A stretch of DNA of 32,745 nucleotides from a virus (IMGVR_UViG_3300043395_001001:1-32745); one strand, 5' to 3'. Counted from the stretch's first letter, positions 16,255-32,745 are shown. The notes: generated from the letters alone by a model not told the origin. Made by a program: numbers and translations.

Positions 16255-16515
16255 TTAGTTGCATCTACTGGTCAAGATCGTGTCAAGAGCGCGGTTGGAG
16301 ATCAAGACACCGTCCCCGTCAGCGGGAGCGTATTTGTCGTAGTGGTGCTCCAGCATCGCCAGCAGGGCCACGTCGCGGCCGTTGCGGGGGAACACGCGCC
16401 ACCATTTCCCGGTGACGTGTTCGGTCCCGAACTTGATGTCGGAGAGATTTTCGGGGCGCGGGACGATGACTTCGGGGTCAATCTCCTGCCTGGCTGTCAG
16501 GTGCATCATGTTCAT
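16255..16515 (-). CDS. Hypothetical protein (~86 aa; start uncertain, 16515 or 16542)
   Basis: Fills the gap before the portal and overlaps the end of the upstream gene. Confidence 0.6.
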   Translation of the reverse strand: MNMMHLTARQEIDPEVIVPRPENLSDIKFGTEHVTGKWWRVFPRNGRDVALLAMLEHHYDKYAPADGDGVLISNRALDTILTSRCN

Positions 16516-17122
16516 CTTGGGTAGGCTTGAAAGGTTTGGCACGGAGCACGCTCATGTCGGCTCCCCGGGACTCGGGTGCTGCGGTCTTGGTTCCGGCGCT
16601 GCGGTCCTTGATGACGTTGAGGACACGGACCAGATCCGCGTAGTCCTTCAGCGGGGGACGGTCGGCCATGAAGGCCTTGACCTCGTCCAGAAGACCGAGC
16701 ACCACCAGCTTGTCGAGGATCTCAGCGGTGTCCTGCGAGTCCTTCACGTCCTCGGTGAGCTTCTGCTGATACGCCTCCAAGGCGTTGAGCACGGGGCGGG
16801 GTGCCGGGTTGAACGTCTTGCGGTTGACGATCTGGTCCTCGGTCCCGGCGAGCGGCTCCAGCATCGGCAGAGCGCTGTCGTCCACGTCGTCCTTGGCTTT
16901 TTTCCGAATCGCCTTGTCGATGTCGCCCTTCTTGCGGAGGACGAACTTCTTGCGCCACCGGGAGAGCGTCGGCGCGGAGATGCCGGAGTGGCAGGCAATC
17001 TGGTAGTCGGAGTAGCCCTGAACCATCAGCTCGCGGATGTGATCGACAAACGCCTGCGGGTATCGACCGCCCTTGCGGGGAGGTGCTCCGATGGGTTTGA
17101 GTGTCACCATTGCGTTTGCCAT
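16478..17122 (-). CDS. HTH protein, probable terminase small subunit (214 aa)
   Basis: Start re-called at ATG 17122; RYPQAFVDHIRELMVQGYSDYQIACHSGISAPTLSRWRKK HTH followed by helical segments; adjacent to terL. Confidence 0.65.
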   Translation of the reverse strand: MANAMVTLKPIGAPPRKGGRYPQAFVDHIRELMVQGYSDYQIACHSGISAPTLSRWRKKFVLRKKGDIDKAIRKKAKDDVDDSALPMLEPLAGTEDQIVNRKTFNPAPRPVLNALEAYQQKLTEDVKDSQDTAEILDKLVVLGLLDEVKAFMADRPPLKDYADLVRVLNVIKDRSAGTKTAAPESRGADMSVLRAKPFKPTQDEHDAPDSQAGD

Positions 17123-17206
17123 GTGGCGCGAGTATCCACGCTGTCGCGGGCATTGCAAGAACAATCGGCTTGCAAATGCAAGAAAATTGCGGTAAGGGTG
17201 CGGCGG
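17123..17206. promoter_or_regulatory. Divergent promoter region between the putative terS and terL
   Basis: Two self-complementary TTGCAA hexamers (17153-58, 17170-75), each followed on opposite strands by an imperfect -10 close to an ATG. Confidence 0.45.
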
Positions 17207-19054
17207 ATGACCACACGACGCAAGACCGCTTTGTTCAAGCGGTTCCACCCGAAACGCCTCGACACCGGGGCTTGGGAACTCCCGAACGGCCTCGGCATCA
17301 TTCCGGCCTGCAACGAGATCACCGCTGTTCTCAAGGCGGCTCGGCACACCGATGATCCCGAGGCATTGGAGTATTACTACTGGTGGTGCGCCGACTACTG
17401 GTGGAACCAAGACGCCGATGACATGCAGATGGCCCGCCACAAGTGGGCGCACCGGATGATCTACCACGCCTGCCGGGAGCAACACCTCGCGGTCGGCGGG
17501 TCCGCGTCGTCGGGGAAATCCCACACCATGGCAGGCTGGGCGCTGTTCCAGTTCATGCGGATGCCGGAGTCCACCACAGTTCTCGTCACCTCCACGGATC
17601 TGAAGGGCGCACGGAAGCGGATCTGGGGCTCCATCGTCAAGTTGATGACCTACATCGACTACCCGCCGTGGCGTGTCAAGGACGCCATCGGGAGCTTGTC
17701 CTACGAGAGCGGCAACAAGACCCCGGCCCGCGAAGGTATCCACATCGTCACGGCCGACAAGTCGTCCGACAAGAACAAGGTGGGTAAGCTCATCGGTATC
17801 AAGTCGAAGCGGGTCATCCTCATTGCTGACGAGCTTGGTGACATGGGGCCGAACATCCAGGAAGCGGCGTTCAACCTTCGCAAGAACCCGTCTTTCCAGA
17901 TGATCGGCATGTCCAACCCCGGCTCACGCTTCGACCCCTTCGGCGTCTTCGCCGAACCGGAACATGGTTGGGACAGCGTCAACGTCGAGGCCGACAACGA
18001 GTGGCGCACCCGTCTCAAGGGTCTCTTCATCCGGCTCGACGCGGAAGACTCGCCGAACCTTGACCCGGAAGATCCGGAGAAGGACTGGCTCACGGGCTTC
18101 CACTTCGACTACCTCCCCAGTCAGCGGTCGATTGAGGAAGACCTTGACGCCACGCTCGCTCCGACACGGGACGAGGCGCGGAAGTCGCGCAGCTACATGC
18201 GCTTCAACCGGGCGATCTTCTTCGACTCGGACGACGACGACACGATCTACTCCGAAGCCGACATCCGCAAGGCGCGGGCCGACACGGCGACCGAGCTGAA
18301 GAACGTGACGCTGGTTGCGGGCGTTGACCCGTCGTTCTCCAGTGGTGGGGACAAGACCGTGATGGCCGTCTGCGAGGTTGGCTGGGACGCCTACGCCCAG
18401 CTCTGTGTCCAGTTGAAGGAGTTGGTTTACCTCCACGAGGACATGACCAACAAGGCCGATCCCCGGACGCTCCAGATTGCCGAGGCCATCCGCCGCGAGT
18501 GCGTGAAGCGCAAGATCAAACCCGAGAACGTCGGCATCGACGCCACGGGTGGCGGCGGCGGTGGCCTGTGCGACATGCTCCAGCTCCAGTGGAACGACCA
18601 GTTTCTCCGCGTCCAGTTCGGCGGCAAGGCGTCGGATCGGAAGATCAAGAATGACAGCAAGGTCGTCGCATCGGATCGCTACTACAACCGGGCATCCGAG
18701 CTGTTCTTCGTCGGCAAGCAGTTCCTCCTCGGTCGCCAGATTTACGGTCTGCCCAACGTCATCATCAAGCAGATGTGCAACAGGTCCTACCTGACCAAGA
18801 AGACCAGCAGGGGTGTAGTGTTGCAGGTCGAGCCGAAGGAGAAATACAAGGGCCGCACCGGGTCATCGCCCGACGAGACCGATGCGTTCCTCGTCGCAGT
18901 CGAGACCGCCCGTGTCCGCCACGGGTTCCTCGCCGCCGACCCGGTGAAGGAGCGACCGGAGCCGAACGCACTAGCGCGGTGGCTCAAGAATCAGGAGTTC
19001 ATCCGCAATCCGTTCGACCCGTCGTTGCTCGGGCACCACGCTAACTTGGCGTGA
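17207..19054 (+). CDS. terL: Terminase large subunit (615 aa)
   Basis: Start re-called at ATG 17207. Walker A GGSASSGKS, Walker B VILIADE, coupling motif GMSNP, RNase H-like nuclease motifs AGVDPSFSSGGD, GIDATG and SSPDETDA. Confidence 0.92.
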   Translation: MTTRRKTALFKRFHPKRLDTGAWELPNGLGIIPACNEITAVLKAARHTDDPEALEYYYWWCADYWWNQDADDMQMARHKWAHRMIYHACREQHLAVGGSASSGKSHTMAGWALFQFMRMPESTTVLVTSTDLKGARKRIWGSIVKLMTYIDYPPWRVKDAIGSLSYESGNKTPAREGIHIVTADKSSDKNKVGKLIGIKSKRVILIADELGDMGPNIQEAAFNLRKNPSFQMIGMSNPGSRFDPFGVFAEPEHGWDSVNVEADNEWRTRLKGLFIRLDAEDSPNLDPEDPEKDWLTGFHFDYLPSQRSIEEDLDATLAPTRDEARKSRSYMRFNRAIFFDSDDDDTIYSEADIRKARADTATELKNVTLVAGVDPSFSSGGDKTVMAVCEVGWDAYAQLCVQLKELVYLHEDMTNKADPRTLQIAEAIRRECVKRKIKPENVGIDATGGGGGGLCDMLQLQWNDQFLRVQFGGKASDRKIKNDSKVVASDRYYNRASELFFVGKQFLLGRQIYGLPNVIIKQMCNRSYLTKKTSRGVVLQVEPKEKYKGRTGSSPDETDAFLVAVETARVRHGFLAADPVKERPEPNALARWLKNQEFIRNPFDPSLLGHHANLA

Positions 19055-21661: not shown

Positions 21662-24600
21662 TTAGTCCCGGAGTTGCAGATACCTCGGGTGCATCCGGTA
21701 GGCAGCGTCGAGCTGGCGCAGGCGTTCAGGTGAGATCCGGTAGATGTCCTGACGCTCCTCCTCGCCCATGACAGGCAGGTCGGTGACGTGGCCGTTCAGG
21801 ACCAGTGTCGTCCTGCGGCGGGACAGTCCGGTGTCCACCATGGACCGGGCGATCTCGTTCTTGTCCGAACCGAGACCCTCGAACCCACTGGCGAGGCGGT
21901 CGATCTTCTGCCAGACGCGGCGGGTGGCATCGACACGGTCGGCGTAGATGTCCTCAACGCTGGCGTCCAGGGGTGCCGGGGACTTGAGGCTGCTTGTGAT
22001 CTGCCACAGTTCCGAGTTGGCCTTGCGCTGGTTGTTGAACGCCCGGAAGCGCATGTCCTCGATGCGGTAGTTGCGCGGGCGGAAGATGGCGACCATGGAG
22101 AATGTGATCCCTGCTGGCGAATACCACCAGTTGTCCCGTCCGGTGTCGCCGTCGTTGAGCGAGTCCTTCAGGTCTGCGAGCTTCTTGATCGTCGCAGGGG
22201 TGTAGGCACCCGCTACCACGTGCATCAGCGACTTCCTCAGCTTCTCAGCGTCGGTGTCAGACTCAAGGTAGATCGGGAGTCCGGTCGTCTCGTTGATGTT
22301 CCGCTTCACGTCGATCAGCTTGCTTACAGCCACCTGCTCGCCGAACATGCCGTCCGCGAGGAAGCGATACCACGTGTTCGGGATGTCCTCCGGCTTGCCG
22401 TTGAGCAGGTTCCGCATGGTGGACGTGAACGGGTCAATCGGGAACGAGTAGGGGTTGGCGAAGGTCAGGTCAATCAGCGTGATCGTCTTGTCATCCCTGT
22501 TGATGAGCGGGATAAACGAGGAGTTCTGCGAGTAGGACGGTAAGGCCGCACGGATCGCCTCGTCCTCATCGTCACCGATGCCCGCCGATGCGGCGAGAGC
22601 CAGTGGCGCGATCATCGTCAGGCCACCGTGAACCGTGGCTGCGATAGCCGCCCGTTGGTGGGCGCTCCTGCGGAGAACATCGTTGCCAGACTTGTAGTCC
22701 TCTTGGATGAGGCGGTAAATCTCAAAGGTCGAGCGGATCATTTCGGACTTGAACCCGATGAACGGTGCGATCAAAGCGGAGATGCCGTTCTGCGAAAAGG
22801 TCTCGACCGCCTGCGACCGCATGGAGTGAGTCGGCGTCACGCGCTTGGTGCGGCGTGCGGCCTCTTGTTTGATCTCTTCTTCGGTGCCGAACTTGGCCTT
22901 GGTGAGCAGGTCTTTCCAGTAGTAGTAAACGATGGGGCTGACCACGCCTTCGGTGAAGTCGGCCATCTTGGTGAGGAACTCAAGCGCCTTGGAGGCTTTG
23001 CCCTTAATCGTCCCGAGCGCGTCGATGGACGCCTTGTTGACGTATTTCTCAGCCAGTGCGACAGCTTGGCTCGGCGTCTTGGATCCGGCTTCGATCAGCT
23101 CGTTCAGGTAGCTGACCTGATTGGAATCCTTGAGAACACCGGACGAGACGAGTTCAAGCATCTGGTTGCGGAATGTCTCTGGATCTTTGACGAAGGTGTC
23201 GAACCAGCGGGTGTCTTCACCGAGAACCGACGAGAACAACGACATGCGGTAGCCTTTCTTGTAGGCCCCTCCCGATGCAAACGGGATCGCCCCGACGGCG
23301 ATTGCCGTGATGTGCGATCCGGCGAAACCACGGGTGAAGTAGGCCAGGTTACCGAGCGTTACCACACCCATCGACACACCTGCCAAGTTGCGCAGACGGT
23401 TGTTGAGCCCGGTGAGCACGGCCTGACTCGTGTTCGTCGAGGAACGTCCACCCGTGCCGTAGGCCGAGTCGAACGCCTTCTTGCCCTCGGGCGAGGTGTA
23501 GAGTCCAGCGAGGTGCGGGTAGGATCGGTGCTCTGGGTTGGCCGACACGATGGGCACCCACTTGTCGTAGAGGTTGCGGTTCGCGTCCTTCTGCGCCTTG
23601 GTGATGAGCCAGCCCTCGGCGGTCCCGATGGCCGCAAGCTCGGCCGTCTGGCGGTTGCTGGTGATGAGCTTCGACAGCGCCTCCAGTGTGCGGAGGCTGT
23701 TGAACAGCGGGTCGGTCACCTCCTGCAACGCCTCACGGATCGCCGGGTCGATGTCCTTCTTCTGGCGCAGACGATCAATCGGGAGACGCAGACCGTGGGT
23801 CGCGGACTCGACGGTATCTTGGATGTCGTGACCCATGATGAAGTCCTCGAAAGCGAGGCGGGCTCGTTCGGCGACGTTGACCTTGGCGATGCTCATCAGC
23901 TCTTCCGGATCGGCCTCGGGGCCTGCTTTGCGCTGAAGACGAGCGACCTCGCGGCCGATGGAGAACTGCTCCTGTGCGGCGGCGAGCTGCTCGTCGGTGA
24001 GTCCCTGATACTTGTTCAGGTTGCGCATCAGCTCGATCTCCTGCTCGGCGAAGCTCTTGCGGAACGTCTCGATGGCCGACTGGCGGATCTGCTCGAACTT
24101 GGGATCGTTGAGCATCTGCTGCGCCAAAGCCGGGTTGTGGTGGATGGCGTAGCTGCGGACGAGATAGAGGTCTTCCGAGCGGGTCAGCTTGGCGTGGAAG
24201 TCCGGTGCCTCGGATGCCGGGTAGAGCTTGATGAACTCCTTCTGCAAGGCGAGGCGCTGACTGCGGAACCTGCGGACCCAGGTGCCAACCTTCGGCGCGT
24301 TGGTGTCGAGCCACTGTTGCGAGAGGTCACGCTGACGGGCGAACTCGCGCATGTTCGCTTCCATGGCTCGGTTCTCCATGTCACGTTGAAAATCCATGAC
24401 GGTATTTTCACCACTGGCACGCTTCTCTTTGGCCTGATCGTAGGCTTTCTGCCGGGTCTCGCGGATGCGCTTGTAGGCTTTCTCGTAGTCCGAGATCGCC
24501 GCCTTGCGGGCTTGGGTCTTCAGGCGTCCTTCCTCTTCGATCTCTTCAGCGAGACGCAGGTCGGACTGCACCTGACGCTTGGCTGCGGCGATGGCGTTGC

Positions 24601-27600
24601 GTGCCACGCGCTGAGCCTCCTTGCGCTCGGCATCCTCCGTCTCGGCGAGAACGACCTGACGCCGCTTCACCTCCTCGTTGATGCGCTGCGTGTCGCTGCG
24701 GGTGAGCTGAGGCTCGGTCGTCCCGATGGCACGGTTGAGGTTGTCGCGCACCTCGTCAGTGACCACGGTGCCCTTGATGGCCTTGTCGTAATCGACAGCG
24801 ACGAGACGGCCAAGCTCCTTCTGCGCGTTCTCAAGATACTTGTAGCTCCGGCGCACGTTCTCCGAAGCGAGGGACATGTCCGTCTGACGGATGAACATGC
24901 GCTTCAGGAATCCCGAGACACCTTTGAGATCCCCGCCCTGATTGGCACGGTGGGCGATGTTACCCTCCTGCGCGTTGATCCAGTTCTGCGGGGAGTATTC
25001 CTCGATTGTTTCAGAGACGGTGGTGGAGGGCTGGAACCGGATGTCGGGTGGGGTGGTCTTTACTACGGAGAGAGCATTCCGTGGCGGGACAAATATCTGG
25101 TTCTGCACATCGGACAGACTAAACAATGCCTCTAAAGGCATCCCTGCCACCTCTTGAGAAATTCTCTCCCCAACGGCATTGCGCTCTTCCCCGTTTACGA
25201 ATCTCCCTTCTGTTCTCCCTGCTTCAAATTGAGGAACGAACTCTTCGCTAATCCTGTCCTCTACCTCCAGCTGCAATGCCTGCGTTTGTCTCCAATCAAA
25301 TCCTCGGATGATAATCGCGTCGTGACCGCCCGATTCCATGCGTTGCTGTATGGTGTAATTTACAGCGGTTCTAGCGTACCCCCGTTCCTTCTTTTGCTTT
25401 TCTGCCTCTACATACAGCTCAAGATATGAATCAGGGGTGATGATTAGCGGGTTTTTAGCGTCAATGATAACATCGTTCCTAAACTCGCCAGGCTCCCACC
25501 GGCCCATGTTTGTCCACATTTCCTCATCCTGTGGCTCCATTGCATAGAACCCGTTTCCGAACACGTTGTCTCTATCATCTTGGTCAATCTGATCTGTGAT
25601 GGAAAGCGGCTCTCGTGAGAAATGGACCGCACGGATGGGATTCAACGGCCCTGTTTCGGAGACGGTGGTGGAGGGCTTCTCCCTCGGCTCGTTCTCATCG
25701 AACACCCGAGTCGTCGGTTCGGACTGCCATCCGGTCTTGGCGCGGTGATACTCACGGCCAATGCGGTCGATCATGACGGCGGTGCGCTTGTCGCCCATGC
25801 CGAGCTTGACGCGCTCGACGAGCGACTTGAACGCTGCGGCGAGGTAGCGCATCAGGCGTTGCAGGGCGTCCGGGTTGGACCTGTGGAACACAATGTCCGC
25901 GTCGGTCGTGTTGCCCGTCGTGATGCGCGTGAACAGGTCCTTGAGCCGTGCCTTCTCGTCCGCATCGACCGAGTCACCGAGCGCGTCTTCCGCCGCCTTG
26001 ACCGCGACCGCGTGATTGACGTGAGCGCGAATCACCGCTTCCGCGTTGACCGGGTCGATGTCATCCACCTGCTGACTGATGAGGTCGATGTCGAACTCAT
26101 CCGGCGTCATGCCGTCCGGCAGGAACCCGGTGAGGGTGTTGCGGATGGACTGAACAGGGTCGGACTGGAGTGGAGTTTGTTGGGTTTCACCGGATGGTTG
26201 AAAACGGATGTCGGGTGAAACGGTTTGGAACCGTTGGCTCAGAGGGATGACATTGCCTTGGTCATCGTAGGTGACGGGGTCGGCGGATTTGATTTGGGAG
26301 GGGTCATACGCCACCATCTCGGTGTCGTATGTCTCGCTCTCAGCGATCACCCCGTCAAAACCCGCTCGCCGAAGTCTTTTTTGAAGGGCCTCGCCGCGAA
26401 CCCCCACTCCTGTTTTTCTGATCGTCTCGACCTGCTGCGAAGTAGCCGGATTTTGCAACTTCAAATAAAACATCTTCGGAGGCCCAAACTGTGAGGCATA
26501 TCTTTCCGAGCCAAAGTAAAAACCTTTCCCAAACACCCCTTCGTCGGTGCGCTGCTTGGCATTTTTGCTAAACTCTGTGAATTCTCGGTTTGTCCCATGC
26601 CACACCGGGCCAATGCTATACCCCGCAGCCCGAGCCGCCTCGTCCACCATCCGCTGCGCCGTCTCCATGTCTCCGGCCTCGACGGCGGCGAGGTAGGTAG
26701 CGTCGTTGTCACTGGCGTCGGTGTCACTCGGCTGATAGCGAATATCCGGCGACCCGGTATCCGCCCACTCGTCGGGAAGGATACGCGGTCCCGGTGAGAT
26801 CGGGTCGGCGGATTTGATTTGGGCGGGGTTGAAGACTGCAACAATGTCAGCCGGGTATCGAGCGTCCCAATCAGCGATCCCTGGGTCTTCAAGATTCTCA
26901 AAGATCACGCCATCGTCGCCATCTTTCATGGCGCGACGGAGAACCTTTTTCATCTTGCCTTTGACATCCTCATGGTATGCCCCTTCCATATCGACGATGG
27001 TTCTCTTTTTGAGATCCACAGCGAGCTTCATAACCCTCTCCCCGTGAGATGCCGCAACATCTTCCTGATCGACAAGCCAGATAGCCATCCCTTGAAGAGG
27101 ATCGTCTGTCTTGGTTCCGGTCTTTGTTCTATCAAATTTATTGAACTCAGGGGCGTTTGTCCCGTGGAATACGATTCGCATTCCGGCATCCGTGAGAACC
27201 TTCTCCCGCATCGCCGACAGCTCCTCCCACTTGCCGGGGTTGGCCTCACGCCATGCGGCGATCTGTTCTGCGGTGGCTTCGTCGCTGTCCCGATACAGGT
27301 CTTCGGTGAGTTCAATGAAGCGGGCGGTGTCCGTCGCTTGTCCCGGCATGGCCAGATACACGTCGCTCTTCGACGGTCCCCATGGGCGGGCGGCTGCCGT
27401 CTCAAGGAGACTGGTCATGTCGGCCACCACCTCTGCGCTGATGCGCTCGGACTCGGTGCGGACCCTGCCGTTGAGCAGGTCGCGGATCGTGTCCATGATG
27501 ACGCGCAGCCAGTTCTTCTCGCCCTTGGGTGTCAGCTCTCCGACCGCCTTGCGGAAGTCGGGGTCCGTCCAGAAGTGTGTCACGAACTCGTCGATGCTGC

Positions 27601-30600
27601 TGGTGCCGTAGCGCAGGTTGGCGAGCTTGTCATCCTTGAGTGCCCGACGCTGGACCGACTGGCGGACACGTTCAAGACGGTTGAGAATCTTCTGCTGTGC
27701 GGCCGTCGGGTTTTTGATGCTCTCGACCGTAGCGGCGTGGAGAAGCTCGTGGAGCACGGTGTCCACCGCGCCACGGGGGCCGACGCGGCGGCTGTTGATG
27801 ACGACCTGCCCCGACTTCGGGAGATACATGCCCGCGAAGTTCTCATCGGGCAGGTTCGACAGCGTGACAGGGATGCGTGCCAGCATGTCGCCGAAGTGCT
27901 TCACCAGCAGCGAGGCGATCTGCCGCTCGTGCGGCTTCTTCGACTTGGACGCCACGGACTGAAGGAACCCGGTGACGTTGTTCGGGTTGAAGCCGTATTG
28001 CTCCAGCTCCGAGACTACGGTCGTCCGGGGTGCGGGTTGGCCTTGTTGTTCCGGGCCTTGAGGGCGATAGACGTAGAGATCGCCTTGCTTGACGTATCCT
28101 TCGGGGAGAACAACTCCGTATCTGTCAACAGACTCGACGCCCACCGGAGCTTTTTTGTCAACACGACCCTGTGTCCATCCGTGCCAATAGGCAGGTATGG
28201 TGTAATCTTTTGTCACCTGTCCAATGCCCTTAGACGCTTGGTTTGCCTTCCGGATGTTCCCAAGAATCATGCTGTCAAACATGTTGGGTGTTACCCCCTC
28301 AACCGAAGCATTCTCAGACGATCCATTCTCTACACCCGCCTCATACTCCGTCTTTACTTTACCTTTGTAAGGAACGGGCTGTCTTTGTTGCTCCAACCCC
28401 GCCGTGGCCGTTGGCGCACTTGCTACCGTAGCCACCTGTGCAGCCTCGACAGCGTCCATGCCGTCGAGGTTGATACCCGCCTCAGTGGCGATCATTTCCA
28501 TGGACTGCGGGTGGTCGATCACGTAGGCGGGACCGTTGGCCACCGTCTCCTTGACCGCCACCTCGGACGGTGTGTCGAACACGTCGTCGAAGTTGGGAGC
28601 TACGGCTTCGACCGGGGCAGCACCTTGACCTTGCCCGAGTGCAGCTCCTTGAGGAGCTTCTCCTTCTGGGCTTCCTTCAACGGGCTGACCTTGCTCAGCA
28701 GGTAGCGGACTTGCTTGTTGGTTTTGGTTTTCATCTGGCAGCGGAACTTCGGTGGGACGATAGACAAACAGATCACCTTCGCGGACGTAACCGTCGGGGA
28801 GCTTGATTTTGTAGGTTTCGACGGCTTCGGCGGAAAGAGGATATTGTGGTCCGAGGAAACCCAAGTCTGCTTCCGCATTAACCCTTGTGGTGTCAAGCTC
28901 TTCACGGATGAGATCCTCAATGTCTGCCTTGTGGAGCTTGGCAAGCTGCTTACCCTTCTCTTTCTCCCTTCCGTTCTCACGAGACCATGTGACATACTCA
29001 GCGGGCGTCATCTGACTCACCTTCGCGGGGTTGCGGGTGATCGGCTCGTTTCCGAGAGTGGTCACTTCAACGCCAGCCACGCCTGCATCGCTTGGTGCCT
29101 GCTCAACCCCTCCTTCTGCTTCAGCTTGAGGAAGGTCTTCTTGGGGGGCTTCTTGGATTCGTTCTTCGACGGTGGCATCTGGCGGTGCGGTGTTGGTGAG
29201 TCTTCCACGAACGGGGGCAGGCGCGGACGGGGCGGGCTCAGGCGCGGGCTCAGGCGCGGGCTCTGGTGTGGCCACTACCGCACCTTCACCTTGCGCTTCG
29301 GCAGGCGCAGCAGCTTCCGGAACGCCGCCATCAGGGACAAGGTTCTCTTGCTGCGTCGCCCCCTCTGGCACCGATGGTGCAGCGGCTTGTTCTTCTTGGT
29401 TCTGGACATCCTGGGTAGGTATTGGACCCGCCGCCAACCGACGCAGGGCGCGGGCGGTCTCGGGGGCGTTGGCCTTGTCGAGCTTGGTGGCTACGGACAG
29501 CAGGGTCTCGCGGCGGACACGGGCGGCCTCGGCTTCGGGGGTCTCGTTGCCAATCACGCCGGAGCGGATAGCAGCCACGCCGCCACCGAGGGCACCGCCG
29601 ATCATGCCCGCATACACACCCTCCTTGATCGCCGCACCCACGTCGATCTTCTCACCGCGTCCGATCTGCTCGTTGACAGCGTTGAGCGCGGAGTCGGTGG
29701 CTTCTTCAAGAGCTTCCGCTGCCGCGTCAGCCGGGACGCCGCGCAGGACGGACGACTGGATGCCCTTGCGGATGGTGGACCGCAGGAACGTGTCCGCGCT
29801 GGCCATGTCGATGCCCTCCTTGAAGGACGCCGGGAGCGAGGCCCACTCGTTGCGCAGCTTGGCGTAGATGCCGCTGACCTGGCCACGGGTGAGGTCGCCT
29901 GTCAGGACACGCTCAAGACCCTTGGCACCGAGCATCTGGAACGCATTGGTCACGCCGAGGGTGATCGCACCTGCGACCATGGCATGCGGTAGCGCGATCT
30001 CACGCGCCTGCTCCGGCGTCTTGCCCTGTGCCTCCAATGCGGAGGTGAGCCCGACGTAGGTCGAGGACGCGCTGCGGTTGAACCAGACGGCGTTCATCCC
30101 GACGTTGCTGCCGACGCTGGTCAGGTTCTTGACCATGTCGCGTCCGGCGAGTGTGATGACCTCGTCCGCTGTGGTGGCCGTGCCTTCGCGGGCTGCCGAG
30201 CGGGACAGGAACCGGGTAACCATGGAGTTCGCCTCCTCGGTGAGAGCAGTGCGCAGCGTGGCCCTGAGTCCGGCCTTCAGCGAGGTCTTGACCGCTGCGC
30301 CTGCGGTGGCGCGGACAGCGGCACCGATGCCGAACGAGGTGGCGAGGTCAGCCGCCACGGGGGCGAGGGTGTTCTGGAGGTCGAACTGCCACCCGAGGTT
30401 CTGGCCGTAGAGCTGGGAATATGCCTTGCGGGATGCCTGATCCTTCTGAAGTCGTTGTAAAGTATCCGTTGCGGATGTATTCCCCATCAGGGCGAGAGGT
30501 CCGAGGAACAGAGTCCCGGCCGCATCGGCGACCGACATGGCCGCGCCACCCACGTAGCGGTCCCATGCGTTCGGGTCGTTCTCCTTGTCGTTCATCCACG

Positions 30601-31807
30601 ACTCAAGGATCTGGCCGTCGGTCTTGCCTGCGGCCTTCTGCTCGTCACGGAACTTGATGAACTCGCTGCCCTTGCGACTGGCGATGGTGGCGAACGCCGA
30701 CGGGGCGACCGTTTCGAGGTGGCTGTCCCGTTGCGCGATGATGCGGTCCCGTTGCTCGGCGGGGATCTTCGTGCTCTGGGAAAGCGTCTTGTTGAACAGC
30801 TCCTTGTTGAACAGCACCGCGTCAGGAAGACGCACCTCGCCCGTGGACAGGGCGATGACGTTGTTGTCCACGTTCTCGGTGTCCACTTTCGGCGCGACCT
30901 GGAGCTTGACCATGTCGCTGAGGAAGTTCATCCGCTCCTCCGCGTCGGTGAACTCCGCGTGGAGCCCCGCGTTGGCGAGGTAGGTGTCGAGCTGCTCAAG
31001 CTGTGGGGTGAGGTTCTCGCCACCCGCGCTGGCGGCGTCGATGACCTGCTTCATCTTGGCCGAGGATGCCTGATCTTGCATCATGGCGTTGGCCGCAGCC
31101 GCCGTGAACTCCTGCTGCCGCTCCATCCGGTAGAGCGGGGAAGAGTATCCCGGCAGCACTTGTGCCTTCTGCTTGATGAGCGGCACCACGTCTGGACTGA
31201 TACTGGGGTCGGCCTCAAGGTAGCGGGCCATGGCCTCGTCGTCGTTGGCCAGCTCCTCGATTCTCGGGCTGGCGTAGAGCCGCTGCGAGCCATCGGACTC
31301 GGTGAGGAATGCGAACGCCTTGTCGCCACGGTCCACGGCTGCCTTGCGGGCGGCGTTGCGCGGGTCGTCGTAGGTCGTCTTGACCGGACGGGATGAGATC
31401 ACGCCGTCGAGGTTGGCCTTCGCCTCCTCCAGTTTGCCCAGGTAGCTCTCCTGATCGGGGAAGTACGACTTAACCCGGTCGCTGCGCAACGCGGAGTAGG
31501 TGCGTGCGGCGTCGGCGAGCGGGGCGTCACCCGCCTCGGTGGCGTAGCGGTAGAGCAGGTCCGAGTCGTCGTCTTCCGCTTTGGCGTAGAACGTCGCAGC
31601 CGGGTCTTCCCCGAGGTCGATGCCCTCCTCAGCCGCCTTGGTCATCAGCGCCTCGTCGATGTATCCCGCCGTCTCAGGGTCGTATTGTCCGGATCGAAGC
31701 AGGTTGATCTTCGTCTCGCGGCTGTATTTCCGCATCAGGTCGAGGCGGTCTTGATCCTGTGGCTGGGTCGAAACCCACTGGCTGAAGGGCGTGATACTGT
31801 CTGGCAT
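21662..31807 (-). CDS. Large polyvalent protein (3381 aa): N-terminal ejection-like/hydrophobic region, zincin metallopeptidase, three ART-PolyVal-like domains, C-terminal LPD-like helical region
   Basis: HELLH zincin motif (27737-27751) with downstream SSIDEFVT; FHGT...DGVIF...FNPAQIKS, WHGT...GKGFYF...FDGVI...YDPSQIKS and VHFS...GNGFYA...HDAIII modules; Gly/Ala-rich hydrophobic helices in the N-terminal quarter. Confidence 0.85.
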   Translation of the reverse strand: MPDSITPFSQWVSTQPQDQDRLDLMRKYSRETKINLLRSGQYDPETAGYIDEALMTKAAEEGIDLGEDPAATFYAKAEDDDSDLLYRYATEAGDAPLADAARTYSALRSDRVKSYFPDQESYLGKLEEAKANLDGVISSRPVKTTYDDPRNAARKAAVDRGDKAFAFLTESDGSQRLYASPRIEELANDDEAMARYLEADPSISPDVVPLIKQKAQVLPGYSSPLYRMERQQEFTAAAANAMMQDQASSAKMKQVIDAASAGGENLTPQLEQLDTYLANAGLHAEFTDAEERMNFLSDMVKLQVAPKVDTENVDNNVIALSTGEVRLPDAVLFNKELFNKTLSQSTKIPAEQRDRIIAQRDSHLETVAPSAFATIASRKGSEFIKFRDEQKAAGKTDGQILESWMNDKENDPNAWDRYVGGAAMSVADAAGTLFLGPLALMGNTSATDTLQRLQKDQASRKAYSQLYGQNLGWQFDLQNTLAPVAADLATSFGIGAAVRATAGAAVKTSLKAGLRATLRTALTEEANSMVTRFLSRSAAREGTATTADEVITLAGRDMVKNLTSVGSNVGMNAVWFNRSASSTYVGLTSALEAQGKTPEQAREIALPHAMVAGAITLGVTNAFQMLGAKGLERVLTGDLTRGQVSGIYAKLRNEWASLPASFKEGIDMASADTFLRSTIRKGIQSSVLRGVPADAAAEALEEATDSALNAVNEQIGRGEKIDVGAAIKEGVYAGMIGGALGGGVAAIRSGVIGNETPEAEAARVRRETLLSVATKLDKANAPETARALRRLAAGPIPTQDVQNQEEQAAAPSVPEGATQQENLVPDGGVPEAAAPAEAQGEGAVVATPEPAPEPAPEPAPSAPAPVRGRLTNTAPPDATVEERIQEAPQEDLPQAEAEGGVEQAPSDAGVAGVEVTTLGNEPITRNPAKVSQMTPAEYVTWSRENGREKEKGKQLAKLHKADIEDLIREELDTTRVNAEADLGFLGPQYPLSAEAVETYKIKLPDGYVREGDLFVYRPTEVPLPDENQNQQASPLPAEQGQPVEGSPEGEAPQGAALGQGQGAAPVEAVAPNFDDVFDTPSEVAVKETVANGPAYVIDHPQSMEMIATEAGINLDGMDAVEAAQVATVASAPTATAGLEQQRQPVPYKGKVKTEYEAGVENGSSENASVEGVTPNMFDSMILGNIRKANQASKGIGQVTKDYTIPAYWHGWTQGRVDKKAPVGVESVDRYGVVLPEGYVKQGDLYVYRPQGPEQQGQPAPRTTVVSELEQYGFNPNNVTGFLQSVASKSKKPHERQIASLLVKHFGDMLARIPVTLSNLPDENFAGMYLPKSGQVVINSRRVGPRGAVDTVLHELLHAATVESIKNPTAAQQKILNRLERVRQSVQRRALKDDKLANLRYGTSSIDEFVTHFWTDPDFRKAVGELTPKGEKNWLRVIMDTIRDLLNGRVRTESERISAEVVADMTSLLETAAARPWGPSKSDVYLAMPGQATDTARFIELTEDLYRDSDEATAEQIAAWREANPGKWEELSAMREKVLTDAGMRIVFHGTNAPEFNKFDRTKTGTKTDDPLQGMAIWLVDQEDVAASHGERVMKLAVDLKKRTIVDMEGAYHEDVKGKMKKVLRRAMKDGDDGVIFENLEDPGIADWDARYPADIVAVFNPAQIKSADPISPGPRILPDEWADTGSPDIRYQPSDTDASDNDATYLAAVEAGDMETAQRMVDEAARAAGYSIGPVWHGTNREFTEFSKNAKQRTDEGVFGKGFYFGSERYASQFGPPKMFYLKLQNPATSQQVETIRKTGVGVRGEALQKRLRRAGFDGVIAESETYDTEMVAYDPSQIKSADPVTYDDQGNVIPLSQRFQTVSPDIRFQPSGETQQTPLQSDPVQSIRNTLTGFLPDGMTPDEFDIDLISQQVDDIDPVNAEAVIRAHVNHAVAVKAAEDALGDSVDADEKARLKDLFTRITTGNTTDADIVFHRSNPDALQRLMRYLAAAFKSLVERVKLGMGDKRTAVMIDRIGREYHRAKTGWQSEPTTRVFDENEPREKPSTTVSETGPLNPIRAVHFSREPLSITDQIDQDDRDNVFGNGFYAMEPQDEEMWTNMGRWEPGEFRNDVIIDAKNPLIITPDSYLELYVEAEKQKKERGYARTAVNYTIQQRMESGGHDAIIIRGFDWRQTQALQLEVEDRISEEFVPQFEAGRTEGRFVNGEERNAVGERISQEVAGMPLEALFSLSDVQNQIFVPPRNALSVVKTTPPDIRFQPSTTVSETIEEYSPQNWINAQEGNIAHRANQGGDLKGVSGFLKRMFIRQTDMSLASENVRRSYKYLENAQKELGRLVAVDYDKAIKGTVVTDEVRDNLNRAIGTTEPQLTRSDTQRINEEVKRRQVVLAETEDAERKEAQRVARNAIAAAKRQVQSDLRLAEEIEEEGRLKTQARKAAISDYEKAYKRIRETRQKAYDQAKEKRASGENTVMDFQRDMENRAMEANMREFARQRDLSQQWLDTNAPKVGTWVRRFRSQRLALQKEFIKLYPASEAPDFHAKLTRSEDLYLVRSYAIHHNPALAQQMLNDPKFEQIRQSAIETFRKSFAEQEIELMRNLNKYQGLTDEQLAAAQEQFSIGREVARLQRKAGPEADPEELMSIAKVNVAERARLAFEDFIMGHDIQDTVESATHGLRLPIDRLRQKKDIDPAIREALQEVTDPLFNSLRTLEALSKLITSNRQTAELAAIGTAEGWLITKAQKDANRNLYDKWVPIVSANPEHRSYPHLAGLYTSPEGKKAFDSAYGTGGRSSTNTSQAVLTGLNNRLRNLAGVSMGVVTLGNLAYFTRGFAGSHITAIAVGAIPFASGGAYKKGYRMSLFSSVLGEDTRWFDTFVKDPETFRNQMLELVSSGVLKDSNQVSYLNELIEAGSKTPSQAVALAEKYVNKASIDALGTIKGKASKALEFLTKMADFTEGVVSPIVYYYWKDLLTKAKFGTEEEIKQEAARRTKRVTPTHSMRSQAVETFSQNGISALIAPFIGFKSEMIRSTFEIYRLIQEDYKSGNDVLRRSAHQRAAIAATVHGGLTMIAPLALAASAGIGDDEDEAIRAALPSYSQNSSFIPLINRDDKTITLIDLTFANPYSFPIDPFTSTMRNLLNGKPEDIPNTWYRFLADGMFGEQVAVSKLIDVKRNINETTGLPIYLESDTDAEKLRKSLMHVVAGAYTPATIKKLADLKDSLNDGDTGRDNWWYSPAGITFSMVAIFRPRNYRIEDMRFRAFNNQRKANSELWQITSSLKSPAPLDASVEDIYADRVDATRRVWQKIDRLASGFEGLGSDKNEIARSMVDTGLSRRRTTLVLNGHVTDLPVMGEEERQDIYRISPERLRQLDAAYRMHPRYLQLRD
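25007..25677 (-). repeat. 26-bp direct repeat (25/26 identical) flanking a low-GC in-frame ART-like cassette
   Basis: TGTTTCAGAGACGGTGGTGGAGGGCT (25007-25032) and TGTTTCGGAGACGGTGGTGGAGGGCT (25652-25677); offset 645 nt = 215 codons; both encode PSTTVSET. Confidence 0.9.
26277..26829 (-). repeat. 28-bp direct repeat (27/28) at the ends of ART-like modules 1 and 2
   Basis: GGGTCGGCGGATTTGATTTGGG(A/C)GGGGT at 26277-26304 and 26802-26829; offset 525 nt = 175 codons; encodes P(S/A)QIKSADP. Confidence 0.9.
28600..28734 (-). CDS. Nested +1-frame basic peptide C (44 aa): MKTKTNKQVRYLLSKVSPLKEAQKEKLLKELHSGKVKVLPRSKP
   Basis: ATG..TAG inside the giant ORF; G/C at third position in 41/45 codons in this frame versus 13/45 in the giant-ORF frame. 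Confidence 0.65.
   Translation of the reverse strand: MKTKTNKQVRYLLSKVSPLKEAQKEKLLKELHSGKVKVLPRSKP
29062..29178 (-). CDS. Nested +1-frame basic peptide B (38 aa): MPPSKNESKKPPKKTFLKLKQKEGLSRHQAMQAWLALK
   Basis: ATG..TGA; GC3 35/39 in this frame versus 15/39 in the giant-ORF frame; C/A-rich leader CACCAACACCGCACCGCCAG. Confidence 0.5.
   Translation of the reverse strand: MPPSKNESKKPPKKTFLKLKQKEGLSRHQAMQAWLALK
29275..29409 (-). CDS. Nested +1-frame basic peptide A (44 aa): MSRTKKNKPLHHRCQRGRRSKRTLSLMAAFRKLLRLPKRKVKVR
   Basis: ATG..TAG; GC3 41/45 in this frame versus 21/45 in the giant-ORF frame; leader CCAATACCTACCCAGG. Confidence 0.5.
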   Translation of the reverse strand: MSRTKKNKPLHHRCQRGRRSKRTLSLMAAFRKLLRLPKRKVKVR

Positions 31808-31865: not shown

Positions 31866-32303
31866 CTAATCACCAAAAGTGACATCCCACGCGATCATCC
31901 CGATGAACCACAGGAGTATGGCTGGCGAAAGCACGGATACCACCAATGCGGTGAGAAGCCCAGCCAATGGTCGCGCCCAAGGTGGGGTCTTCTGGATCTG
32001 TCTGCGGAGGTTGTCTGCGATGCTCCTGGCGTTGTGGTGGTCAGGTGGCGCGGGCGGGGTAGGCGCGTCCATCCACAGTATGCCTTCCTTGGTGGCTGTC
32101 GCCTCTGACACGATCTGCATCGTCTCGTGGTCACAGATGTGACCCCACGGGCTCCGGCAGTTGAACTCCTTGGCCCAAGCAAATCGGTTCTTCTCGTAGA
32201 GCTTCTTCAGTTCTTCGACTGTTCCGAAGCCACGGAACTCGTGCGCTCCACCTTCAGGGTAGTATGCCGCTCCTGCAAAGAGGATGTATCGCTTGGTGGT
32301 CAT
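31866..32303 (-). CDS. Hypothetical protein, paralog 1, with C-terminal TM segment (145 aa)
   Basis: KRYILFAGAAYYPEGG.HEFRGFGTVEELKKLY N-terminal domain; hydrophobic C-terminus. Confidence 0.75.
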   Translation of the reverse strand: MTTKRYILFAGAAYYPEGGAHEFRGFGTVEELKKLYEKNRFAWAKEFNCRSPWGHICDHETMQIVSEATATKEGILWMDAPTPPAPPDHHNARSIADNLRRQIQKTPPWARPLAGLLTALVVSVLSPAILLWFIGMIAWDVTFGD

Positions 32304-32304
32304 G

Positions 32305-32643
32305 CTATTCTGATTGGGGTGTCAACGGGTTACCGCGAGGTGTGTTCACATACTCGACCCCGCTGCCCACGCAAGGGATGTTCTTGAGGTCCTTTTTACT
32401 CGGCATCTCCACCCAGCGAATACCATCCGGTCCGTGGACAGCTACGGAGACTACCTTCATCGTGTCGTGGTCACACACGTGACCCCACGACCCGCAGAAA
32501 GAATACTCCTTTACCCACAGAGGGTAGCTCGTCTCGTAGAGCTTCTTCAGTTCTTCGACTGTTCCGAAACCACGGAACTCTTGTGACCCGCCATCAGGGT
32601 AAAAAACCCTTCCGGCGAAGAGGCTGTATCGCTTGGTGCTCAT
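32305..32643 (-). CDS. Hypothetical protein, paralog 2, soluble (112 aa)
   Basis: Shares the first ~78 aa domain with 31866..32303. Confidence 0.75.
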   Translation of the reverse strand: MSTKRYSLFAGRVFYPDGGSQEFRGFGTVEELKKLYETSYPLWVKEYSFCGSWGHVCDHDTMKVVSVAVHGPDGIRWVEMPSKKDLKNIPCVGSGVEYVNTPRGNPLTPQSE

Positions 32644-32745
32644 GATTCTTTCCCCATCAGTTTGAACCTCTCCGCAGGTGGGAGTTGCATCAATGCCTTG
32701 TGGTTGGCCGCACGCTCTTCGTCGGTCGGGACGGGTGGGTCGTCG
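32640..32745 (-). CDS. 3' end of a gene entering from the right edge (...DDPPVPTDEERAANHKALMQLPPAERFKLMGKES)
   Basis: Open frame from the edge, ending in a TGA that overlaps the next ATG (ATGA). Confidence 0.5.
   Translation of the reverse strand, partial: DDPPVPTDEERAANHKALMQLPPAERFKLMGKES

Follow-up and report, generated by a model that had tools for sequence, protein, structure and literature searches.

Small basic reading frames of unrelated families are conserved inside giant phage genes and are likely translated from their own starts

The virus record IMGVR_UViG_3300043395_001001:1-32745, analysed over its whole length of 32,745 bases (the window), contains a giant gene for a polyvalent-type protein, and inside this gene three short basic reading frames, designated A, B and C, are found in the +1 frame. 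The locus raises the question of whether such frames are genes in their own right or a by-product of the linker that the giant gene encodes there. The reading that we prefer, with a probability of about 0.8, is that A, B and C are unrelated small basic frames conserved in giant genes, likely translated from their own starts, and that the giant gene reads the same DNA as a probably flexible linker. Several components of this reading are observed directly: membership of the small frames in families, conservation of the +1 frame above that of the host (giant) frame, maintenance of starts and stops, and recurrence of arrays composed of several families. The features concerned are the following.

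21662..31807, minus strand: giant host gene, 3381 aa, polyvalent-type (open reading frame, Pfam and PHROG)
29275..29409, minus strand: candidate nested gene A, 44 aa, +1 frame, isoelectric point 12
29062..29178, minus strand: candidate nested gene B, 38 aa, +1 frame; alternative in-frame start GTG at 29208
28600..28734, minus strand: candidate nested gene C, 44 aa, +1 frame; start set by family alignment

Each small frame is complete from start to stop within the longer open gene, whose own frame spans them at codons ~800-845 (A), 877-916 (B) and 1025-1070 (C). The coordinates, lengths, frame and six counts of G+C at third codon positions (GC3) of the original prediction, made from the sequence alone, were all reproduced exactly: for A, B and C, GC3 is 21/45, 15/39 and 13/45 in the main frame and 41/45, 35/39 and 41/45 in the +1 frame. 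The latter is not an independent signal, since it is numerically the same as the G+C of main-frame first positions (GC1). The loss of bias in the main frame, which had been proposed as the informative signal, is real but not specific, as 7 of 78 other 40-codon blocks have 21/40 or less. The GC1-minus-GC3 contrast is specific for the three frames, the highest values along the gene being those of C, B and A (26, 22 and 19; the next is 11). Over the spans of A, B and C, a frame open from start to stop appears in 2.0%, 7.3% and 1.6% of synonymous recodings; such frames are not rare by chance, and the case therefore rests on the comparison with other phages.

Compared with one copy from another giant, A is identical at 24/32 residues, B at 22/27 and C at 29/39, and 0 of 20,000 recoding draws reach the observed identity for any of them (means of ~7; maxima of 15, 17 and 18). 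Since A, B and C served as queries in finding the homologues, high identity is favoured, but an asymmetry between frames cannot arise in this way.

C is almost certainly a gene. It has 13 protein homologues with 71-90% identity and belongs to a widespread phage family of 183 sequence clusters at 50% identity; of the candidate stretches, 297/324 viral and 191/240 metagenomic ones were confirmed. A sample not biased to nesting was composed of 80 of the 297 viral and 80 of the 191 metagenome matches, that is, 160 loci with 120 distinct copies. Those counted as free, on the criterion that a stop interrupts the -1 frame, number 80, in agreement with the free-standing homologues that the original prediction had envisaged; 23 are nested, 12 are overlapped by the 3' end of the upstream gene and 5 have a short open -1 frame. 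A pattern search enriched for nesting provided 45 further loci, and the enriched set of nested C comprises 39 distinct copies (window included) in 17 host clusters, beginning 91-1165 codons into the stored host frame. Isolate phage records gave no match for C, for a relative of C or for one of A. A genome scan detected a nested C on a short contig of a metagenome-assembled genome and an overlapped C in a Gemmatimonadota chromosome, a third locus being a partial false match.

Selection on nested C was studied in 55 pairs within eight host clades. The ratio of non-synonymous to synonymous differences (pN/pS), summed over pairs that are not independent, is 0.13 in the +1 frame and 2.87 in the host frame, and the within-clade identity is 0.95 vs 0.74. 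The differences fall 120/73/419 on +1 codon positions 1/2/3, and this concentration of changes at third positions (419/612) within clades indicates that selection continued after nesting. In the host flanks of seven of the eight clades, main positions 1/2/3 have 3970/2502/10828 differences, with a pN/pS of 0.22. These flanks show the normal pattern, and its reversal within C is unambiguous.

Some other C-like sequences were observed. Large predicted proteins (P0018, P0091, P0109, P0112, P0117, P0085 and P0098) contain, at the protein level, a C-like unit in frame; in several of them it lies between two M-x-x-G-G motifs. One gene downstream of free C, L026:6347-6472 and L073:6786-6911 encode a second small basic product with a C-like YLL motif, possibly a diverged C paralogue. 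The loci L099 and L100 contain a nested C region twice, ~51 kb apart on one 130-kb contig, either by duplication or as an assembly artefact.

The homologues of A and B were recovered by six-frame searching of the retrieved loci and by scanning DNA; word-indexed protein searches returned nothing for A and only an identical copy for B, and of 147 candidates in a first viral scan for B none was confirmed. For A, the first homologue was found in locus L129 by six-frame search of the fetched loci, and two scans contributed ten more loci. All 12 copies of this family have an open -1 frame, ten in giants and two in genes of ~200 aa, so giants are not the sole hosts, and 11 of the 12 have an ATG at the same position. 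When 10 distinct copies are compared over their final 32 codons, the +1 frame has a pN/pS of 0.46 and the host frame one of 1.79, with amino-acid identities of 0.65 vs 0.32. The family motif, H-x-C-x-C-x2-C, is likely a zinc motif. Family A is very probably a family of genes, and for the copy of the window the same status is rather likely. The two shorter hosts are at L212:3411-4022 and L215; in L212 an ATG overlaps the stop of A, and the host gene sits between terminase-like and portal-like genes (labels given by eye, with no family match).

B has homologues in L129 (expectation value, E, 6.5e-6) and in L219/L220, which are mutually identical over the core. The window and L219 are the one informative pair for purifying selection on the +1 frame of B: 22/27 residues are identical in this frame vs 9/27 in the host frame, with differences of 7/6/13 at the three codon positions. 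With L129 the values are 15/27 vs 9/27. In relatives of the window the stop codon of B varies from TGA to TAA. B is probably a gene, and the claim that real +1 genes are present is borne out by selection on the nested frame in all three families. By eye, the end of the +1 frame in L049:4873-5250 and L067:5152-5499 is B-like (LSR..A...WL.LK), and the B profile does not recover it.

A, B and C belong, as judged from their profiles, to three unrelated families. The KVKV noted near the C-terminus of two of the peptides is indeed present in A and C but a shared meaning is not supported; it is probably coincidental, because no profile of A, B or C recognises another (E 0.085-0.28) and most A copies have KPK. 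The letters of the CCAG(G)ATG start context could likewise be verified (CCAGGATG in A, CCAGATG in B and C), but this context was rejected as a specific signal, other nested copies having CAATG, CGATG, AAATG or CAGTG. No Pfam or PHROG family was found for A, B, C or a 131-aa reading frame that ends with C.

A survey of other giants, which the original prediction had suggested, revealed that similar nested arrays do occur. The order is A-B-C in the window, B-A-C in L129, B-C in L219 and D-E-C in 12 distinct hosts. The L129 giant, with B, A and C at codons 617, 681 and 1155, has no BLAST match to the giant of the window at E 1e-8. Families D (~60 aa) and E (~33 aa) were revealed by an all-against-all comparison of the nested frames of 233 long open reading frames. 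Both are nested in +1 near the start of other giants, mostly behind AGGAGG-type sites; Shine-Dalgarno-like sites with initiation spacing precede 13/13 nested D and 9/11 nested E starts, the two remaining E starts being within 6 nt of the stop of D. For E, pN/pS is 0.37 in the +1 frame vs 2.25 in the host frame. The D/E loci are L152:3574-3900, L160, L162, L145, L199, L205, L123, L172, L157, L180, L203, L189 and L198. In L152 and L157, E begins right after the stop of D, resembling a hidden two-gene operon.

With respect to translation, the sequences just upstream of the three ATGs were ranked for weak folding among the 46 +1 ATGs of the giant of the window.

29410..29429, minus strand: leader of A, lacking a Shine-Dalgarno site; of the three, the one with the weakest start context, rank 16/46
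29179..29208, minus strand: leader of B, A/C-rich, weakly folding, rank 3/46
28735..28764, minus strand: leader of C, weakly folding, rank 5/46

Shine-Dalgarno sites are absent at A, B and C, and likewise at most of 20 listed gene starts of the window. Nested C starts (n=37) are ATG in 27 copies and GTG in 9, with none in one copy; random 16-codon +1 windows give 52%. Nested copies share an A/C-rich, G-poor leader: those of C contain 15% G and fold at -3.5 kcal/mol, vs -3.4 for free C and -8.5 for background +1 ATGs. No sigma-70-type promoter was found in 28300-30200, where 0.2 would be expected. In the window, weak folding applies to the leaders of B and C but not to that of A. Internal initiation is proposed, in which ribosomes would start at A/C-rich, weakly folded leaders on the mRNA of the giant gene; the ordinary genes of the phage mostly have no Shine-Dalgarno site and the same type of leader.

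How such nesting may arise is illustrated by one phage group that has the same giant and a small-terminase gene downstream. In this group C is free (L074), overlapped by 4-14 giant codons (L009, L025 and L029) or engulfed (L055, L204 and others). The giants of L009 and L204 share 91% identity as far as C, and additional modules are found before C in L029 and after C in L204, a pattern that agrees with modules being gained or lost next to a small late gene. Around A-C, relatives of the phage of the window are, judging from their breakpoints, mosaic. Their contigs cease matching at 29409, the ATG of A (one contig), and at 28734, the ATG of C (two contigs of one run), and DNA of relatives also ceases matching at 29209 and 28613. 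In one contig of run X6, 828 different letters follow directly on C (window 28597-28613); this, together with the runs diverging at 28613, indicates that the segment following C is exchangeable. In a DNA tree of C based on 96 columns, where base composition is a confounding factor, nested alleles cluster with 3 label changes and the free and nested alleles of the L074/L009/L055/L204 group are separate.

The proposed course of events is that a modular giant acquires or exchanges segments next to small late genes. Silent changes suffice to open the -1 frame of a Lys/Arg-rich gene, and that frame is then rich in Glu, Gln, Gly, Ala and Pro and constitutes a ready-made linker; thereafter the host frame would be selected only for openness and hydrophilicity. 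Several properties of nested C bear on this tuning. A T before AA, AG or GA at the +1 third position occurs in 0 of 436 cases, and at third positions that play no part in stop avoidance T is found at 41/742 in nested vs 280/1592 in free C, the ordinary genes of both sets having equal T at third positions (0.27 and 0.28). The host frame contains 1.3 hydrophobic residues per nested C core vs 4.6 for the same frame of free C, and more acidic residues; the peptide itself is more basic when nested (7.6 vs 5.8 when free). The remaining frame contains stops in 36/38 nested and 57/77 free C cores, and this is the likely reason for nesting in +1. For the window, the comparison within its own clade comprises 40 contig variants, of which 3/12 inside A, B and C and 18/28 outside fall on main position 3 (p 0.038; 2 further differences omitted).

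The original prediction offered two origins, overprinting or small genes read through as linker, and these data fit the second. Overprinting is unlikely for C because the small frame is the conserved and widespread one (183 clusters), the host reading being poorly conserved. For A and B, of which only nested copies were found, either direction of origin is conceivable.

The function of the peptides can be approached through composition and structure. A, B and C have net charges of +18, +8 and +10, facing linker segments of -9, -10 and -7, and basic N-termini without a hydrophobic signal stretch; Arg amounts to 23% of A, 3% of B and 5% of C. An AlphaFold2 model of C built on 97 sequences is strand-helix-helix-strand with a predicted local distance difference test score (pLDDT) of 89, and a hydrophobic core is conserved in the family; for A the model is of intermediate quality (pLDDT 69). 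Foldseek found nothing for C at E <=0.001, VIA-align gave a best Z of 3.6 (root-mean-square deviation 3.9, 44 aligned), 44 residues being a weak query, and the best E of a PDB profile search was 0.56. The alignments of C and A yielded no useful Pfam or PHROG family, and the ESM Atlas had no usable match for either. Among the inspected neighbours of free C are small terminase, endolysins and other small basic genes. Given the net charges of +8 to +18, the likeliest role, which we suggest only tentatively and as the weakest step of the scheme, is binding of nucleic acid while virions are assembled or packaged; the peptides may also accompany the giant protein into the head.

Protamine-like proteins are dominated by Arg and have no folded core. 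The name used in the original prediction is thus not adequate for peptides of which B and C are Arg-poor, C has a confident fold with a hydrophobic core, and family A has a Cys/His motif. Protamines and the small basic internal head proteins, such as those of phage T4, are strongly basic and plausible binders of nucleic acid in the capsid, but the peptides described here match neither in sequence or fold, B and C being Lys-rich.

Several results weigh against the preferred reading. Free-standing copies of A, B, D and E were absent among the 220 loci, so that capture is documented for C only, and B is known from 3 distinct copies, all nested. Between the window and L129, B differs at 9/9/11 positions, with no excess at third positions. 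The pN/pS sums for C, as stated, include non-independent pairs, and host values above 1 are the expected side effect of constraint on the +1 frame and not a sign of adaptation. The C tree would also fit an old nested lineage spread by recombination, which could even be the parent of the free copies. In L129 there is no ATG at the equivalent position for A (ATA) or B. The leader of A ranks only 16/46 for weak folding, and RNA run X24 does not cover the region, containing only an unrelated 37-nt piece. The A of the window has lost the CxC part of its motif and is two to three family cysteines short; of 3 variants in relatives, 2 alter the peptide (K>E and A>T), and its +1 pN/pS against the rest of the family is 0.50, so that this copy may be under relaxed selection and decaying. 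L207, a distant orthologue of the giant, carries A in a genome without C, and the set is therefore not obligatory. Lastly, no Pfam, PHROG or structure match provides a function.

Some of these points are those expected if the genes had been engulfed recently, were untranslated now and persisted as linker DNA, their conservation being due to common descent. We regard this as unlikely in general and, for the A of the window specifically, as doubtful though clearly less improbable, given its incomplete Cys motif and non-silent variants. The ATGs missing in L129 and a contig of one run that substitutes the first codons of C would also agree with it. However, the within-clade changes of nested C are concentrated at +1 third positions (419/612), its starts go from ATG to GTG instead of being lost (36/37 keep one), D and E retain their Shine-Dalgarno sites and the stop of B changes from TGA to TAA, all of which speak against this rival; selection continued after nesting.

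It is similarly improbable that the peptides are charge-complementary partners of the linker or protamine-like DNA condensers. Their charges do oppose those of the linkers, and nested C is more basic than free C, with a more acidic host frame. However, an open linker frame is missing in 80 of the 120 distinct C genes, and for this reason a linker-chaperone role, as originally envisaged, is unlikely; moreover, the linkers are only 32-42% identical across hosts, and their acidity is largely what results when Lys codons are read one base back. Condensation by protamine-like action is opposed by the Arg-poor composition of B and C and by the conserved core and predicted fold of C.

Programmed +1 frameshifting from the giant frame, which would generate shortened giants with basic tails and no free peptides, is very unlikely. 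In its favour, no stop interrupts the 27, 32 and 91 codons that precede the ATGs of A, B and C in +1, and C is in frame in five large predicted proteins (P0018, P0091, P0109, P0112 and P0117, at the protein level). However, start codons are fixed, several nested C have an in-frame stop 1-5 codons before the ATG, the Shine-Dalgarno sites of D and E are at initiation spacing, and the free copies are stand-alone genes of equal length. Finally, a mere compositional effect, in which any linker rich in Glu, Gln, Ala and Gly looks basic and high in GC3 in +1, is hardly credible: it would account for the open frames in 1.6-7.3% of recodings and for the low main-frame GC3 of 7/78 blocks, but it is refuted for C and A, by free-standing C genes and by identities of 24, 22 and 29 over recoding maxima of 15, 17 and 18, and for B by 22/27 vs 9/27.

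Nested phage genes are already known; the addition made here is that of multi-family arrays in giant genes, for which no description was found in the open-access literature. Embedded spanins (lambda Rz/Rz1) are often in +1 and usually missed by annotation, with 196 unannotated o-spanins reported (PMC6139136). Like A, B and C, they are small phage genes lying entirely inside larger ones, with embedded, overlapped and separated architectures; unlike that fixed membrane pair, we find three unrelated soluble peptides in a 10-kb gene, in variable sets and orders. That survey found no spanin family that mixes embedded members with overlapped or separated ones, whereas family C presents all three arrangements in one phage group. 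An identification of A, B and C as an embedded spanin pair was rejected, as they have no lipoprotein-type hydrophobic stretch and the host product is of 3381 aa, not a short anchor gene.

The HNH insertion of ShiLan in phage methylases likewise lies out of frame between a start and a stop of its own, and the host gene reads through it as a tolerated loop (PMC11855218). However, this is a single homing endonuclease, and A, B and C are of 38-44 aa, arrayed and, in the case of C, commonly free; with this size and no Pfam or PHROG nuclease match, a homing insertion of that type was discarded. The out-of-frame remodelled families of Escherichia coli resemble our case in that parts of genes derive from the alternative frame of another gene and are described there as short and disordered (PMC8788219); here, unlike there, the donor frame is intact and selected, and several donors are found in one linker. 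Phage polyvalent proteins share with our host its giant modular organization with ART-PolyVal domains near virion genes, but the main text of their description mentions neither overlap nor linker, and no nested genes (PMC5512222).

If translated, these frames would mean that in abundant uncultured phages a whole layer of small genes escapes the gene callers, being covered by giant open reading frames; one window led to five hidden families. Free, overlapped and engulfed copies would represent natural stages in the origin of overlapping genes, with the direction reversed, since the large frame is the unconstrained one. A simple rule for +1 nesting emerges, namely that Lys/Arg-rich genes open silently in -1 and give a hydrophilic linker, and the GC1-minus-GC3 contrast is a cheap screen for further nested genes. 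It is conceivable, although we hold it only tentatively, that giant polyvalent genes of uncultured phages build their linkers from entire small genes, as hidden +1 mini-operons for at least three unrelated basic proteins. These would be exchanged in cassettes beginning at the hidden start codon and translated from within the giant gene, the encoded core proteins being packaged and delivered with the giant protein.

Other features of the window define the context of the host gene.

26279..26605, minus strand: best-scoring ART-PolyVal stretch, giant aa 1735-1843 (Pfam)
27737..27751, minus strand: HExxH motif, HELLH, giant aa 1353-1357, read from the translation
16382..19054, plus strand: terminase large subunit (PHROG 2, E 7.3e-13)
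28735..28995, minus strand: open +1 frame upstream of C, within a 131-codon ATG reading frame (28995-28600) whose 3' end is C

Pfam recognises ART-PolyVal in two stretches of the giant protein (E 3.5e-23; 83.4 bits vs a cut-off of 31.2). We take HELLH to be a likely metallopeptidase site, although no family match was obtained. The two ART-PolyVal stretches and the HExxH motif thus lie within one giant polypeptide, as is characteristic of polyvalent proteins. A match to PHROG 22602, a virion structural protein (E 4.8e-9), makes it likely that the giant is a virion protein, and with its predicted terminase large subunit the window belongs to a phage region of packaging and virion genes. The polyvalent-protein description locates these proteins near late virion genes and proposes that they are themselves packaged and injected (PMC5512222). 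Two single-protein queries against viral contigs found no close orthologue of the giant, and one marine Pseudoalteromonas phage matches its C-terminal third at 23%. The runs with at least one fifth of the region's words (12 of 24 rows, 3 of them possibly the source) are freshwater, aquatic or riverine.

The open +1 frame upstream of C is not supported as coding: 3/6 contig variants are silent in the main frame and 2/6 in +1, and the main frame there holds motifs that recur in another giant. The tandem genes at window 31866-32303 and 32305-32745, both of PHROG 1411 and with similar first residues, are a probable duplication. A block of low GC3 at 25687-25090 (giant aa ~2040-2240), ART-like by eye and with no Pfam match, is possibly a third, diverged module. 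In the main frame, the motif LP[DE]GYV..GDL.VYRP is duplicated on both sides of C, at window 28807-28750 and 28110-28060 (giant aa ~1001-1018 and 1232-1248), and a stretch similar to it is present in the giants of L134 and L207.

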